Both the position numbers and the translations under genes were made by a program. A stretch of DNA of 64,000 nt from Vermamoeba vermiformis (lineage: Eukaryota), in assembly GCA_045837725.1 (NCBI GenBank), contig JBEWZL010000215.1:124001-188000 (forward strand), in the 5' to 3' direction. Positions 37,009 to 64,000 of this stretch are shown piece after piece. The notes under the pieces were generated by a model. That model was given only the letters and a program-made list of their open reading frames with translations. It had not been told where the DNA came from and made no database searches. The stretch's first letter is position 1. Every line of letters starts with the position of its first letter.

Positions 37009-38732
37009 TTATCCACAAAATACTACAACTAATACATCAGATGTACCACCACCACGCGATGCGGTCATCACTCTACGTTCTTGGGTGTTCGGATTTCCTC
37101 CTATAATAGCATGAATATGATCGCGTAGTCTATGTACAAACATCAACTCCTGCTTCTGATAGTCCTCAACCAGTCTGGCCGGATAATGTGCGGTGGAGCT
37201 AATTTTGCGCTCGTATTCCTAAAATAGACTCGTCAGAAATGGTCTTTAAGTTGCTTGATATCGCAGGCATTACCTCTACAGACATGGTGTGACGTGCTTC
37301 AAGCGAGCTCAACATCTCATTCAAGTACTGCACTACTCGAGTCCTGTGTGCGTCGGACACAAACAATCGTTCGCGGCTCAGGTCTGCGTTGTCTAGCTCA
37401 TCGAAATCTTCTTTGTCCATCATATATATGCTCAACGCATATAAGAACTGCATGGTCCTGTCGCTCAAATCCAGAGTGTACTCGCTAAGAGTGGATTCAA
37501 TTAGTTCACTGAGTGATCACGCATAATCTACTCAGTACCTCGCGATGGGGATAGTATTCGCTTTGAGCACGTCTTGTTTCGTGGACAAGAAGCTAACGGC
37601 ATTGTAGAACGTGTCATCGAGTGTCCAAGGCATGAAGTGAAAGCGATTGAACGGCAACAAAAAGCCGTAGCAGAGAAAGAAATCTTCGTTCTGACTCTTG
37701 CCGTAACTGAAATAACATTGCGAGCCCTGGCTGACTGGATCGGTGGCTGTGATCACGAACCAACCAGACTCGGTGTGAAATTTAATGGTGTTGCTGATGT
37801 CGGGTTAGTTCTCGAGCCAGCAAATGACACGTGTCACTTACTCGTCAGCTCCCTCGTGCTGGCACTGGTGATTGAACATGTCTGCCATGGGTATCACTGC
37901 ATAAGCAGGGTTATCGAGCTCAAAAGCACGTGACAATACTATCCAAATCGCCCAGCGGTACTCTTGCAAAGTAATCACGCTTGTATCAAACAAGTGCGGA
38001 TTGTCCTAATACACTTAGTACAGTATCACCGCGAATTCATGGACTCACCTTCATGATAGGATAGAACACTTTGAAATACGCTTCGTTGAACACTTTCTTC
38101 TGTTGCTTCAGGCGTGCGTGCGTCACAGGGCACGTCTGTCGCATATCATCGAACAGGTGGTCTTCCCACAGCATCGGTAGACTGGGCTCTGGTAAAGCAT
38201 GTGCGAAACTAAGTTAAGAAACAATTTGGCAAAGTTGAATTGCTACATGACCGGTGCTGGTAAAAGGATATCAAAATAAGGGCGCCAGAACGAATTAGGC
38301 TTGGACTTTTCGTGCAACAGAAGCAATACTATAGAAGCGAACGGGTCTTGCAAGATGCTCGGATCTGTCAACTGCGTTTCTAGCGTTGTGCGCAATTCGG
38401 GGTTTATCATCGATATCATCATTGTCGGGGGAACTTTCAAAATTACTTGCCCAGCCTATAATAATGCATGTCATAAGGAAACAATGCACCTCCAAGATTG
38501 TTAATATCATTCTCGATTTAATTGTCCGAAAATCTGTAATAAATTCGGAATTAATTTAACGCACCTCCACTGGTTTATGCGCAATAATTCCACGGCCAGT
38601 GTCGTCAAAAAAATGTATTCCAAACATATTATCTTCTGGGTAATCAAGCTCTTGGCTATCAGCCACATCCGCAGCTCGGAGCGCGTGTTGGCGGTTATTA
38701 GACCAGAACCATTCTTCAAAAACTGCTTCCAT
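37009..38732 (-). CDS. Rubisco-LSMT/SETD3-like SET domain methyltransferase (contains an AT-AC intron)
   Basis: TGRGIIA..ILKVP, WRPYFDALP, WAIWIVLSRAF, IPMADMFNH, YFSYG..NEDFFLCYGF; 3' end approximate. Confidence 0.85.
38201..38271 (-). other. U12-type AT-AC intron, 71 nt
   Basis: 5' ATATCCTTTT, branch TTTCTTAAC (38221-38213), 3' CAC; removal restores WRPYFD-ALPEPSLPMLW. Confidence 0.9.
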
Positions 38733-38825: not shown

Positions 38826-41800
38826 TTACAGAATCAGACTCTGTTGCACGACATCTCGTGTTTGTTGATAGACCTCAATGCACGCACTGAGAAGTTGTTG
38901 CAAAATAGCAGCGGCACGAGGTCCCTTCGCATTGCTGACAGGTTGCTGGTTCGTCGTACGTTGCAGACGGTGCAACTCGTCGCAGTGCTCACGACAGTCC
39001 AATAGCCGAGGCTTAAGCTCGTCGTAGTGCTTGTGCACACTGCTGCACTGCTGCAACATCACTGCAATGACGCGTGTCAAGTCCGCAAGTGCACGACGTC
39101 CTGGCTCGCTGTCCTCCACGGTCGACAAACGGTCTTCAAGTTGGAGCAAGCCATTTGGGTTCTAGACTACAGTTAGCTCGCATATAACCAGCTACAATAC
39201 TACTGAGACGTACCGAAAAACTTGACGCATGATAAGAATCGCATCAACAGCCCGGCACGAAGAGTAGCGCGAAGAGCAGCGTCGTCAGTTGATTGCGCGG
39301 TAATTTCGTACACGCGCACTTGATTGACTTCACTCTGACCAGTGCGTGAGCGAGTCTCTGAAGCGAATTGATGCAAGAATGAAGCGGCCTTGAAGTGGCA
39401 AGTGTCGCCCAAAGACGTAACTAAAGAGATCTCAGACTGCTCTTTCAATGTCTCTTTGATCTTATTGCGCTGCTCATCATTGAAACAGTCAATCAAGAGC
39501 AACGAGGTCAGGAATCGCTTGGAGGTAGAGAACAAGCTGTTTAGCGCCACTGTCTCGTTTGACTGACTGCTAGCAAGAGCGTTCTGTTCTGGCTTAGCAC
39601 AAGTGATGAAATCGTCGCAAAAAGGCAAGCCAACTTTCAGGGACAGTGTGGCAGGAATAATAGACCTAGTCTGACCAACCACCGGTTGAAACTACAATAG
39701 TTAATTAGTACTTGTAATAGTAATATTTGTTGTTTACGTACTGGTTGTGAACGCGAATGAATGATCGAGTGGATTGACTGCCACAAAGCAGGACTTGTTT
39801 TCACGGGTTTCACTTCGCTCTTTGCCGCTCGGTTGTCTTCACCAGGCTGAATAATACTCGCACCAATCACCGTGTCGAAAGTTAACGATCCGTCCTTTAG
39901 CAAGGGCAACACGAAGAGCTTATCCGTTGAACTAAGCACAGAATGGTAGCTGAGACTAGGCGTAACTGTCAACACACCGTGGGAGGCGATCGAAAGTGCT
40001 TGGTCATAGATCCTGTTCAAATTAGTTACGTCGTCCTTCTGAACTTCAAAATATGAATACTTACATGACGCCACTATTAAAAGCAAGTGGTATCTGAAAA
40101 TTTTGAACGGATTTTGTGAGGCCTGGACTCGCGACTTGGAGCATATCTGAGAGCACTTGTTAGTTTCGAGTTACGAAGATAAGAACGAATGGCTTACAAA
40201 ACCAGTTTCGCGAGAAATAGCTCTCAAACCTTCCATTGTATCGCAGATCAGTCCTGATACTAACGGATATTTTTCCATTTGACTCTGTCACGCGCGGGAA
40301 GATCTTGCATTGAATGAGCCTACTGTTGGACTTAACCTCTTGCATGACGTGAATAGACTTATTGATACTCGTCAACTGACTATTTACATCCTATGCAAGT
40401 ATTAATAAGGTAACGTAAACAGAACTCCGTACCTCTTCCTCTTGTCGCAACGATGTTTGTCGTGAAGAAATAACAGTCATTTGATCCAAAGCTGCTTTGA
40501 CGCGTACTTCGCTCTGACTGAGATCTCCTTGGAGCGCGTGAGCGTCACTAAACAATATTAGACTGCAACTCAACTTGTGTCACAACTTACCTTAACTCTT
40601 TTGGAATGGTAAATGCGTAGAAATATCCCGAACTAGCTGTCGCACCATATCGTTGCTTAGCTTTGTCAAGTGAGAACACATTATAGACATCGGAAGGGAT
40701 AGGCAAGCGAACCGGTATCGTTCGGTCAATTACATCCCAGAGCTCCTCTTCAGGCTTTTGAGGGTCAGGAATGAGCGGAATAAAAAATATTGCAGAAGGG
40801 CTGCCAAATATTATATTGTCCTAAAATTATTAGATACTTGATAACATCCTCGAGTCTGAAACTTACTTGATCCAGCCAGCAAAATGTAACAGGCCCCTCA
40901 ATTTGGCATGACTTGATAACAAGGCGATCACCTCGATGCGCGAAGATGTTCATGTAACCCGAACGGCTATTGGAATTAAATTAAACGACTCTTGGGCAAA
41001 CAATCTTACCTTACAACAACCAAACTGTTGTTCTCTTTAACTTGGCCGGAACCCCAAGGGATAGCAAAAATGCCAAGCACTGAACTCTATTCGTTCGTTA
41101 GCTATGCATGACCTCGCTTCTAAGAGCTTACTTTAGTGTTGACTAATAGTTTTGAATCTGCTTCGTGCTCGCTGAACGGTCTAAAAAAGAGGTCTCCATG
41201 ATCATTTCCTATCAATAAAACGCTCCGCTTCATCAAGGTTCTATTGGAATGTTAAAACAAGGTCGTTATGATACTAGAATTGAAGAACGTACGGATCAGC
41301 CCCAAACAAAGCGGAATAAAACGGTTTTGAGATCAAAAGAGCATCAGTATGATCCTTCTCTGCCGATAACAGTAATTTAAGGTTAAGAAAAGCTCCGTAT
41401 AAAGAATAAATATAAAAGCATCGCTAATAATGGAAAGGATATGTTTTAGTGCTGAAATACTCGCTTGGTGTCGTGCGAGCAGCGTACTATGGTCACCAGA
41501 AGGAGAACATAGCTCTACTGCCGTATTATAAGCGGCTATTAAGCCCTTTGATGAGGGTAAAATGACTTTGCTGGGCAGCTAATCGCAAAATTGGTACGGA
41601 CATTTAGAATATATTAGGTAATTTACCTGAAACTCAGCTAATTTGAAAGAATAATCGATATTGCAACCGTAGGGAGCACTGGCTCTCTTATCGAGAGCAT
41701 TCTGCTTTCTTTGAGAACCAAGGGTAGATTCGCTTTTGAGTTTTTTTTGTGGCTGGGTCGAATCATCTCCAATATTTTTCCTCTTCTTGGATGAGCTATT

Positions 41801-42256
41801 TGAACTGTATAAAAATTGATAAAGAATAATTTAAAAATTTAGCCAATTTTTTTGGCTGATCGCGAACCTCAATCCGGTCGGAGAATTAAAAGGAGAAGCT
41901 ACCAAAAATAAACTGCATTCTATCGTTGAGATAAATGCCGCTGGTTCAGCTTCACCCGATAGCTGCCCGATAGCAAGGGAAGAAGCGTCCGAAGGCAAAG
42001 CCCATAAAGTCTGATCATAATATAAAATAGGTTAGTTTCCACTAATATCAATGGAATAGGGTGTAATGACTTATTTCTAACAAAAAATAATCCTTACCTT
42101 GAAGGTCGGGAGCTGATCCGCATCTAGATCGAAGAGGTGCAAAACTTTCGGCCGGTGTCTCAAAATCAATTTGCGAGACGCATGGTCATAGCATGAAAAA
42201 GCAGAGCCGACAGAATGAGAAATGATTCTAGCTCGAATAATATCAAAGGATTTCAT
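38826..42256 (-). CDS. FAAP100: Fanconi anaemia core complex protein FAAP100-like
   Basis: FYSALFGADPTLMKRSVLLIGNDHGDL, CQIEGPV, coiled coil LTSINKSIHV and C-terminal EVYQQTR..SLIL resemble remembered FAAP100 segments in the same order. Confidence 0.7.
41372..41442 (-). other. U12-type AT-AC intron, 71 nt
   Basis: 5' ATATCCTTT, branch TTTTCTTAAC (41391-41382), 3' TAC; removal is in frame (SALK-LLSAEK). Confidence 0.82.
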
Positions 42257-42780: not shown

Positions 42781-44127
42781 ATGGGTAAGGACAAGCCTCA
42801 CGTTAACCTCGTCGTCATCGGTCACGTCGACTCCGGTAAATCCACCACCACCGGCCACTTGATCTACAAGTTGGGAGGTATCGACAAGCGTACCATCGAG
42901 AAGTACGAGAAGGAATCCCAAGATTTGGGCAAGTCCTCCTTCAAGTACGCCTGGGTTTTGGACAAATTGAAGGCTGAGCGTGAACGTGGTATCACCATCG
43001 ACATTGCTCTCTGGAAGTTCGAGACCAACAAGTACTACTTCACCATCATCGACGCCCCGGGCCACCGCGACTTCATCAAGAACATGATTACTGGTACTTC
43101 TCAAGCCGACGTTGCCATCTTGGTCATTGCCTCCGGAAAGGGTGAATTCGAAGCTGGTATCTCTGAGAACGGTCAAACCCGTGAGCACGCCCTCTTGGCC
43201 TACACTTTGGGTGTCAAGCAAATGATCGTCTTGATCAACAAGATGGACGACAAATCCACCAACTGGTCTCAAGCCCGTTACGACGAAATCCAAAAGGAAC
43301 TTTCTTCCTACTTGGCCAAGGTCGGCTACAAGCCCGAGACTATCCCCTTCATCCCCATCTCTGGTTGGTTGGGTGACAACATGTTGGAGCGATCCACCAA
43401 CTTGCCTTGGTACAAGGGCCCCACTCTCGTCGAAGCCCTCGATGCCTTGAAGGAACCCAAGCGCCCCGTCGACAGACCTCTCCGTATCCCCATTCAAGAC
43501 GTCTACAAGATCGGTGGTATCGGAACAGTGCCCGTCGGTCGTGTCGAGACTGGTATCTTGACTCCTGGTCAACAAGTCACCATTGCCCCCGCTCAAGTCA
43601 CCACTGAAGTTAAGTCCATTGAAATGCACCACGAGCAAATGCCCCAAGCCACCCCTGGTGACAACATCGGTTTCAACGTCAAGGGTCTCTCCGTCAAGGA
43701 TATCCGTCGTGGTTACGTCGTCGGTGACAAGACCAACGATCCCCCAGCTGGCTGCGCTGACTTCACTGCTCAAGTCATCGTCTTGAACCACCCTGGTCAA
43801 ATCCACGCTGGCTACGCCCCAGTTTTGGACTGCCACACTTCTCACATTGCTTGCAAGTTCGCTGAGATCTTGTCCAAGGTCGACAAGCGTACTGGTAAGG
43901 CCACTGAAGAGAACCCCAAGTTCGTCAAGAAGGGAGATGCCGCCATGATCAAGCTTGAGCCCTCTAAGCCCATGTGCGTCGAGTCTTTCTCTGACTACGC
44001 TCCTCTCGGTCGCTTCGCCGTCCGTGATATGAGACAAACCGTTGCCGTCGGTGTCATCAAGGCCGTCACCAAGAAGACTGCCGGCTCTGCTGCTGACGCC
44101 AAGGGTGCCGCCAAGAAGGCTAAATAA
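42781..44127 (+). CDS. EEF1A: Translation elongation factor 1-alpha (intronless CDS, strong codon bias)
   Basis: [39 protein letters not shown]; lacks the opisthokont insertion (PWYKGPTL). Confidence 0.99.
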
Positions 44128-58546: not shown

Positions 58547-59785
58547 ATGCAACGAGTAATTAAAGACGATAGAATATTTAAGCTATTTCATGCTAAAAAT
58601 AATTGGGTGCTGATTACAGAGCAGGTAAATGAACGAGATATCATTTTAAAAATTTTCAGTTTTTAAACTCAGCCGCCAAGGAAACAAAATTACCAAAAAT
58701 CATTAAATTATAACGATCTTCTAAACCTAATTATTTTGCGAATTAACAATCGAAATTTGCAATTTTAGAGGCCAGATCTGTCAAGTCAATCTTTATTGAA
58801 CGTAACAGGCGAATTTCCCTTCAAAGATATTAAAGATTATTGGGATCAAAACAAAAACATAACACACGTATGTATGATCCGCAATCATTACTCAGCCGTG
58901 AGTTAATTGCAGAACAGATCAGCCACCATGAAAAAAGTGGTTGGATGATTGTTGCAACCAAGTGGACCGAGGAGAAGTATGTTACAATCAAATACAAACC
59001 AGCTTAGCTTACGCTTATCATTAGGAATCGTCCTGTTCAAGGCATTTCGACACACCTTGAGCTTCCCTTGGAAAAAATTCAACAATGCTGGCGAGATGGA
59101 AAGAAGATATCAGATCTGTCGTATTGTAAGTAATGCCAAGGTCGCAGCATCCTACCTCGTCTTTCGATGGGGCCGAGAGAAGGGCTATTTCAAAAACAAC
59201 AAACAGCCTCCTTAGCTCAGATGGTAGAGCGTTGGCCTTCTAAGCCAAAGGTCGCGGGTTCGACCCCCGCAGGAGGCTAATTCTTTTTTTTCCTTTTCCT
59301 CGCCTTGCTTTTTGCCCTTCTTCTGCTTTGCTCTTTCCGACTGTACATATAAATCACAGCGATTTTTTTTTTGTAAAATTTGCTGATTTATGTTAGGCGA
59401 TGGGTTGTGGATCTTATTGACCGAACGAGTTCAAGGATCAGTTGTTGGCCAAGGATTCAGCTCCTCAACTGAATTCCCTAAAGAAGATTTAACCAAAGCC
59501 TGGGAGAGTGGCAGCGCAGTTGACATTCTGACATGGGGAGACAACCAATGGGTCCTCATCACCGGCAAGTCAACTGTCAGCCAAGGTTACTACGCGGTCA
59601 GCGGCGACTTCCCCGTCGATAAGATTCGCAGCTGGTATCGCGAAGAGAAGAAACTGAAGTCAGTAGCATACAGCAAGAAAGAGGACCTATGGGTTTTAGT
59701 ATGGGAACAAAAACCAGAGGTTACCCAAGCTATTTATGTCGACCCAAGTTTCCCTGAAGCGCGTTTGAAAGAAATGGGATTCTAA
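58547..59785 (+). CDS. Tandem-repeat protein (Q...FP...I...W..G..I....W repeats, DUF7477-like)
   Basis: Repeats GEFPFKDIKDYWDQN, LELPLEKIQQCWRDG, TEFPKEDLTKAWESG, GDFPVDKIRSWYREE; intron 59126-59396 hosts a tRNA. Confidence 0.7.
59206..59278 (+). tRNA. tRNA-Arg (anticodon UCU), intronic
   Basis: Full cloverleaf GCCTCCT/AGGAGGC, GCTC/GAGC, TTGGC-CT-TCT-AA-GCCAA, GCGGG-TTCGACC-CCCGC; T-run terminator follows. Confidence 0.95.
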
Positions 59786-63071: not shown

Positions 63072-64000
63072 TTATTTCTGACGGCTAATTACAACTTCTG
63101 TCAAATCGATCAAGGCTTGTTTCGCAGGTGAGTCGCTAAAAACAGAGATGGCATCCAAAGCCAATTTACAATGATGCATGGCGAGCTGTTTCGTTCTGCT
63201 CAATCCTTCGCTATTTTGTACGAGTTCTTGTGCCTATAAATTATTATTAGAATTATTTCAGGCAATTTAAATCTGTTAACGTACTCGTGCCACATCTCCT
63301 TCTTGAGAGAATTGTCTTTGCACCATAGACTTGAGTTCAGGATATTGTTCAACGGCGTAAAGTGCAGGAGCAGTGGCGAGACCTAATTTTAAGTCGTTGG
63401 CCACTGGTTTGCCGAGTGACTCTTCGGTGCCCACGTAGTCCAGCATGTCGTCGATCAGCTGCGCCAGAGGTTAGACTGCTGACTCATAACTAGATAACGC
63501 AACACTTACTTGGAAGGCGAGACCGAGGTGACGGCCGTATTGAGTGGCACGTTCGATAATGTCCTTCTCGTAACCACCAATGATGGCAGCACAACGGCAC
63601 GAGTTGGCAATCAAAGAAGCAGTTTTGAGGTAAGTTTTCTGTCAATTAGGTCAGCTACGATGTTCTTCTCTAGCTCCATGCTCTATACATACCTCCATAT
63701 AGTAATTGAAATCGAGTGCGTGTTCAGGAGTGGCTTGCATAAACTCTCCTTCGACGAGATCCGAAATGACTCTGCAAAAAATTGTGTTAAGAATAATAAG
63801 ATCGCTGTGATATGAATAATAGGGCAAAAGACGGGGATATTTAAGCAGGAAGAAGGCAAAAAGCAAGGCGAGGGAAAAGGAAAAAAAGAATTAGCCTCCT
63901 GCGGGGGTCGAACCCGCGACCTTTGGCTTAGAAGGCCAACGCTCTACCATCTGAGCTAAGGAGGCTGTTTGTTGTTTTTGAAACCGCCCTTCTCTCGGCC
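63072..64000 (-). CDS. Trans-polyprenyl (deca-/solanesyl) diphosphate synthase, COQ1/PDSS1-like (5' end outside the window)
   Basis: DLVEGEFMQ, KTYLKTASLIANSC, LGLAFQLIDDMLDY, LGKPVANDLKLGLATAP; from 63772 onward is intron. Confidence 0.9.
63893..63965 (-). tRNA. tRNA-Arg (anticodon UCU), identical second copy, apparently intronic
   Basis: Exact reverse complement of 59206-59278. Confidence 0.95.

Follow-up and report, generated by a model that had tools for sequence, protein, structure and literature searches.

The stretch of DNA analysed here, hereafter the window (64 kb, positions 1-64000), carries a gene of 15 exons interrupted by introns with GT and AG ends and by a single intron beginning with AT and ending with AC, which is enclosed by an in-frame GT and CAG pair. 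A further AT-AC intron lies about 3 kb away in a neighbouring gene. The features of the two genes that enter the analysis are the following:

38826..42256, minus strand: FAAP100-like gene, 15 exons, with 13 U2 introns (42-87 nt) and 1 U12 intron, drawn from contig joints
41443..41578, minus strand: exon 4, 136 nt, from contig joints and the gene model; use of the outer GT would remove its last 18 nt (41443-41460)
41459..41460, minus strand: outer GT, in the context CGA/GTATTT, judged a non-functional decoy
41372..41442, minus strand: fourth intron of the FAAP100-like gene, a phase-1 U12-type AT-AC intron of 71 nt, from the sequence and a spliced contig
41434..41442, minus strand: 5' splice site ATATCCTTT, of the U11/U6atac-type consensus, matching the /RTATCCTTT quoted in PMC2846911
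41382..41390, minus strand: branch-site motif TTTCTTAAC, whose likely branch adenosine (41383) lies 11 nt from the 3' end
41372..41373, minus strand: 3' terminal AC; in plus-strand letters the joint ends are GT..AT, equivalent to AT..AC when read on the minus strand
41293..41371, minus strand: exon 5, 79 nt, from contig joints and the gene model; use of the outer CAG would remove its first 12 nt (41360-41371)
41360..41362, minus strand: outer CAG, judged a non-functional decoy
38201..38271, minus strand: U12-type AT-AC intron, 71 nt, phase 1, in a Rubisco-LSMT/SETD3-class gene, with TTTCTTAAC at 38213-38221

Head to head with the FAAP100-like gene lies an intronless ORF of 458 codons (42781-44127, plus strand), recognised by eye, which we take to be EF-1 alpha; the putative protein appears to be without the insertion of roughly 12 residues that is typical of EF-1 alpha in animals and fungi, which suggests that the organism lies outside the opisthokonts. 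Pfam searches on the long ORFs of the window (1-64000) detected a BCAS3-like WD40 protein, an XPB/ERCC3 helicase, a Diaphanous-type formin (FH3, FH2), an MCM subunit, a cyclin T-like protein, UreF and a flavodoxin-domain protein. In addition, two tRNA-Arg(TCT) genes with equal Rfam scores (73.5 bits) map to 59205-59279 on the plus strand and 63892-63966 on the minus strand, in opposite orientation and with about 4.6 kb between them.

The gene at 38826-42256 is predicted to be a DNA-repair gene distantly related to human FAAP100. Specifically, its exon 14 retrieved P0002, a protein of 897 residues with 81% identity over that exon, and the gene product is 79% identical to this orthologue. A profile built from P0002, P0008, P0014 and P0024 matched human FAAP100 (7kzp_P) with an E value of 3.6e-06, in a colinear fashion over about 310 positions (profile 216-526 against residues 242-593); a similarity this long and colinear to a known member of the FAAP100/FANCB family points to membership of that family. 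Moreover, in the Atlas P0002 is placed beside the FANCB/FAAP100 clusters (0.95, with 221 of 256 features in common); an Atlas search with exon 14 alone returned no usable match. Since Pfam gave no credible family for 13 exon pieces, for P0002 or for P0024, the protein would be a distant member. FAAP100, FANCB, SETD3, SETD4 and SETD6 are absent from 8 text supplements of PMC6717393, possibly not the full list, which gives no sign of minor introns in the human relatives.

In the last exon of the same gene (39143-39145, minus strand), the window is one base longer than the transcripts of runs X1 and X3: the former omits one letter at 39143, and the latter sets 16 letters apart, which would fit the absence of a base at 39145. 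The frame of the window is lost after ...FFEPKWLA and then meets a stop; minus one base, it reads on as P0002 does. The extra base is due to an assembly error or else marks a frameshift allele.

The RNA evidence consists of assembled contigs, as opposed to raw reads, of runs X1 and X3, which stem from close relatives or strains and are 95-99% like the window. These contigs skip successive introns and thus derive from spliced RNA; together, they define the 13 U2 introns on which the 15-exon model is based. The earlier note had proposed, from the letters of the window, an AT-AC intron of 71 nt at 41442-41372, and both its motifs and the spliced contigs agree with this, all elements lying where they had been placed. 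A contig of run X1 crosses the site with a joint between 41371 and 41443, from which exactly 71 bases are removed and which has 79 letters on its shorter side. This contig is 640 letters long, and its pieces (78+143+178+136+79+26) add up to 640, so that no letters stand between the two sides of the AT-AC joint; the GT-AG form would total 610. In the same run, 12 U2 introns of the FAAP100-like gene are excised along with 41372-41442. As for the raw RNA-seq runs X17 and X19, just 4 and 32 reads align, none near the intron; being only 90-95% alike, they come from another species and are uninformative on it.

On the minus strand, the layout of the site is ...CTAAAAC/ATATCCTTTCC...GCTTTTCTTAACCTTAAATTAC/TGTTATCGGCAG/AG, the 3' part of which reads ...GAGCTTTTCTTAACCTTAAATTAC/TGTTATCGGCAG/AGAAGG. 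The terminal AT and AC are accompanied by exact excision in RNA, as seen in the run X1 contig (95-99% like the window). At 41442-41434, ATATCCTTT contains the extended 5' site /[AG]TATCCTT that marks the AT-AC subtype of U12 introns, and at 41390-41382 a TTCCTT[AG]AC-like branch site (8/9) is found near the 3' site, in the absence of a pyrimidine tract. Overall, the U12 signals agree at 9/9 positions of the 5' site and at 8/9 of the branch site, the only departure of TTTCTTAAC from TTCCTTAAC being a C to T at the third position. The gap from TTTCTTAAC to the terminal AC is 10 nt.

We then asked how often such an arrangement is expected in the window by chance. The 5' motif [AG]TATCCT[TC] occurs 6 times on the two strands, and a branch-site-like motif follows in just 2 cases, which are the two AT-AC introns. 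A stringent U12 pattern (ATATCCTT, 20-130 nt, TTCTTAAC, 8-14 nt, AC) has 2 matches in the window, whereas 300 block shuffles gave 0.007 on average, a match of any kind being present in 2 of them. Looser U12 patterns were not above chance in the window (2 observed with 1.0 expected, 7 with 9.6 and 9 with 12.0), so that it is the complete set of signals, rather than the 5' motif by itself, that carries the case. A weak look-alike was noted at 63840 on the minus strand, where ATATCCCC is followed 48 nt on by TTCTTAAC and then by ...TTGCAG; its 5' site is off consensus, and we judged it not to be a U12 intron.

The earlier note had also pointed to an intron about 3 kb away, in an unrelated gene, with equal length and the same variant branch site, and this observation is correct. 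The intron at 38271-38201 measures 71 nt, opens with the same 5' nonamer ATATCCTTT and carries TTTCTTAAC 12 nt before the AC, which places the branch adenosine 13 nt from the 3' end. In run X3, one contig jumps over 71 bases here; the joint was placed at 38198->38270, with 2 letters fitting either side, and is equivalent to removal of 38201-38271, positions 154 and 155 of the record being contiguous. The exons of this second gene match Rubisco LSMT colinearly (E 7.9e-05 and 0.036), with further matches to SETD3 and SETD6; it is therefore predicted to encode a Rubisco-LSMT/SETD3-class methyltransferase, a gene unrelated to the FAAP100-like one. A word-based protein search with one of its exons gave no match. 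Both AT-AC introns are in phase 1 (that of the second gene being read by eye). The idea that the two 71-nt introns are copies of one element was considered and rejected: by eye, only the splice signals are in common.

To see which form of the site is carried by relatives, we turned to the orthologues. The cluster of P0002 has 22 members, of which 15 are listed, most of them on contigs of 2.5-3 kb; such a size is about that of the coding sequence, and suggests that the members are transcripts. Each of the 8 listed members spanning the site (P0002, P0008, P0009, P0011, P0012, P0013, P0014 and P0015) has the AT-AC form, which reads ...SSLKL(L/F)SAEKDH... across the junction and keeps the ten codons in question. 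In agreement with this, the AT-AC product of the window aligns gap-free to P0002, P0008, P0014 and P0024 (the last at 25% identity), while with the GT-AG product a gap of 10 columns opens against each of the four. Variant isoforms do occur within the cluster: P0009 (924 aa) keeps intron 1 in frame, with 27 additional residues. This retention, seen in P0009 and in P0006/P0016, corresponds to intron 1 of the window (42011-42097), which is 87 nt long and by eye contains stops.

Further searches for relatives across the site were negative in the sets covered. Scanning metagenome_contigs with P0002 gave 39 pattern matches, no relative among them; a word-based protein search with the frame that runs from exon 4 into the intron, which would pick up genomic ORFs of relatives with the 5' site, yielded no candidate; and in a search of representatives the fragments ran into other introns, none of them across the 41442-41372 site.

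The GT at 41460 and the CAG at 41360 that flank the intron were said by the earlier note to preserve the frame, and they do: the outer span is 101 nt, so that 30 nt, or 10 codons, fewer would remain. Up to exon 14, the product has 783 residues in the AT-AC form and 773 in the GT-AG form, with stops in neither. From this arrangement a twintron-like site or a U12-to-U2 conversion intermediate had been proposed, together with a comparison of the junctions 41443-41371 and 41461-41359. On the contigs, the first half of this comparison was borne out by the AT-AC joint described above. The GT-AG junction (41461/41359) was not seen among the listed joints of the spliced contigs, a kind of record from which rare isoforms drop out.

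We scored the outer sites with weight matrices from the 13 U2 introns of the same gene, the true donors being treated leave-one-out. The outer donor reached -3.95 bits, compared with 2.0-11.4 for the 13 true donors, and 67% of 129 exonic GTs scored at least as high. The outer acceptor reached 0.29 bits, compared with -0.6 to 10.5 for the 13 true acceptors, which places it under 12 of the 13; in this case, 22% of 159 exonic AGs scored at least as high. The would-be outer intron, at 101 nt, is longer than all 13 U2 introns (42-87 nt, median 50). Furthermore, in-frame outer GT..AG pairs are common around ordinary introns: they were found for 3 of the 13 control U2 introns within 20 nt upstream and 15 nt downstream, and for 7 of the 13 within 30 nt on both sides. 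Finally, the outer GT of the window is part of a serine codon, AGT, in whose place a relative has asparagine (AAY); with asparagine codons, the outer GT cannot be present there, as judged from the codons.

All together, these data are most readily explained by a single intron. We conclude, with a probability of roughly 0.9, that 41442-41372 is a constitutively removed AT-AC intron of U12 type which interrupts, in phase 1, a codon of the FAAP100-like gene, and that the outer GT and CAG are there by chance and delimit no second intron; the pair most likely represents in-frame exonic dinucleotides of no functional consequence.

A nested arrangement, in which the major spliceosome would compete for the outer pair while the minor one removes the inner intron, and in which the former would, at low level or in some conditions, give rise to a product lacking 10 residues, appears very unlikely to us. 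It is true that the outer GT and CAG are present and in frame, that TTAAC within the U12 branch motif, some 24 nt ahead of the CAG, could in principle function as a U2 branch site, and that contigs cannot reveal rare isoforms; in addition, U2-outside/U12-inside introns are known in NCBP2, PRMT1, dZRSR2/Urp, CTNNBL1, CUL4A and SPAG16 (PMC8329584). A twintron would, however, be expected to display both junctions in transcripts, outer sites as strong as real U2 sites, and conservation of those sites in relatives. What we found is the AT-AC junction only, in 1 contig and in 8/8 listed spanning orthologue transcripts; the outer joint is absent from the listed contig joints, and the short form occurs in none of those eight, even though the set includes the intron-1-retaining P0009. 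The donor scores below all 13 true donors and the acceptor below 12 of the 13 true acceptors, the donor being weaker than 67% of the exonic decoys, and the donor is not conserved where asparagine replaces serine. The deletion would leave a gap against all homologues aligned, and pairs of this kind arise by chance at a rate of 3 in 13.

The related proposal that the outer sites are strengthening and will eventually replace the minor intron is highly improbable. Change by way of nearby U2 sites is a published idea (PMC8329584; PMC2846911), yet here the U12 signals are near-perfect, the outer sites are decoy-like and not common to the closest relative, and conversion is usually described as a change at the ends of the intron itself, not as the loss of 10 conserved codons. 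The suggestion of a twintron or of a U12-to-U2 conversion is therefore not upheld, considering that no GT-AG junction is listed, that the scores are those of decoys, that the GT is excluded in a relative and that such pairs are common. Rare AT-AC introns of the U2 type exist, and removal of the present one by the major spliceosome has to be weighed on that account; we regard it as scarcely credible, given that ATATCCTTT together with a branch motif 11 nt from the 3' end and no pyrimidine tract is a U12 signature, from which the 13 local U2 introns differ by their GTAAGT or GTACGT donors and CTAAC or CTAAT branch sites. For annotation, the preferred reading of a single AT-AC intron carries a practical warning, as gene callers restricted to GT-AG introns would settle on the outer pair, which is in frame, and thereby lose ten conserved codons.

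On the reading of 41442-41372 as a U12-type intron, removal would proceed by the minor pathway, the acting spliceosome and its snRNA pairings being deduced from the motifs. U11, and later U6atac, would pair with ATATCCTTT, and the U12 snRNA would pair with UUUCUUAAC, with bulging of the branch adenosine, which lies 11 nt from the 3' end of this intron and 13 nt from that of the second; cleavage would follow the terminal AC. Canonical U12 snRNA has a G opposite the third position of TTCCTTAAC, so that the C to T change, the one departure from UUCCUUAAC, would form a G.U wobble if the U12 snRNA here is canonical. The presence of a minor spliceosome in this organism is suggested by the introns alone: no U11, U12, U4atac or U6atac gene was detected within the 64-kb window (Rfam gathering score; E up to 1). 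A search of the literature with the 9-mer branch motifs brought up only primers and unrelated text.

The co-occurrence of two such introns had been taken by the earlier note as a hint of a high minor-intron density. In order to put a denominator to it, we used a strict U2-intron pattern (40-70 nt) that recovers 10 of the 13 confirmed U2 introns, and which replaced earlier, looser intron patterns that did no better than shuffles in the window. The strict pattern gave 54 matches, compared with 9.5 in dinucleotide shuffles, leading to a rough estimate of some 58 U2 introns in the window, of which the 2 U12 introns would represent about 3%. In published data, the U12 share amounts to 0.276% for human and to 0.554% for the fungus richest in such introns (PMC10639083). 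The chance of at least 2 U12 introns in the window would be 1.2% at the former share and 4.2% at the latter, figures to be read in the light of the window having been picked for these very introns. The hint is thus weakly supported by 2 U12 against roughly 58 U2 introns, and a weak hint it stays.

The 2 local U12 introns are alike in their AT-AC ends, 71-nt length, phase 1 and branch variant. One might picture an unusual minor system in this organism, with a density of one to several per cent, dominance of AT-AC introns, lengths near 71 nt, and a consensus UUUCUUAAC matched by a compensating G-to-A change in the branch-binding stretch of the U12 snRNA; we consider this unlikely. If true, the altered branch consensus and U12 snRNA would constitute a second case of intron-snRNA co-evolution after Physarum, and if the pattern shared by 2/2 introns held genome-wide, it would indicate a lineage with expanded or altered minor splicing, which at n=2 is a lead only. 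Independently of this, two transcript-supported U12 introns are added for a microbial eukaryote that is apparently no opisthokont, one of them inside a distant FAAP100 homologue.

In comparison with canonical AT-AC U12 introns (PMC2846911; bioRxiv 10.1101/2020.10.12.336362), the introns described here share the 5' site /ATATCCTTT, for which the consensus is given as /RTATCCTTT (PMC2846911), a branch site 11 and 13 nt from the 3' end, the lack of a pyrimidine tract, the terminal AC and a phase other than 0. Their common phase 1 fits the bias of U12 introns away from phase 0 that is reported in PMC10639083. They differ from the canonical form in that both branch motifs are TTTCTTAAC and not TTCCTTAAC, and in their shortness, the 71 nt of each falling within the 42-87 nt of the local U2 introns. 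The nested introns of NCBP2, PRMT1 and other genes (PMC8329584) resemble the present site in that a frame-keeping GT...AG encloses a U12 intron; here, in contrast, the outer junction is in no transcript examined, its sites are decoy-like and its donor is unconserved, so that the likeness is one of layout only.

Two microbial systems offer further parallels. The minor introns of Blastocystis (PMC10639083) are likewise very short, AT-AC dominated and found in a protist, but they average 42 bp and 49% of them are in phase 0, whereas those reported here are 71 nt long and in phase 1. In Physarum polycephalum, which shows that a branch motif may co-evolve with the U12 snRNA (TTTGA with GCAAAGAA; bioRxiv 10.1101/2020.10.12.336362), an off-consensus branch motif also recurs in the U12 introns of a microbial eukaryote with short introns. 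There, the TTTGA motif goes with two compensating changes in the U12 snRNA, about 20,900 U12 introns and many non-canonical ends (bioRxiv 10.1101/2020.10.12.336362), whereas the two introns of the window combine canonical AT-AC ends with a single C to T change elsewhere in the motif.
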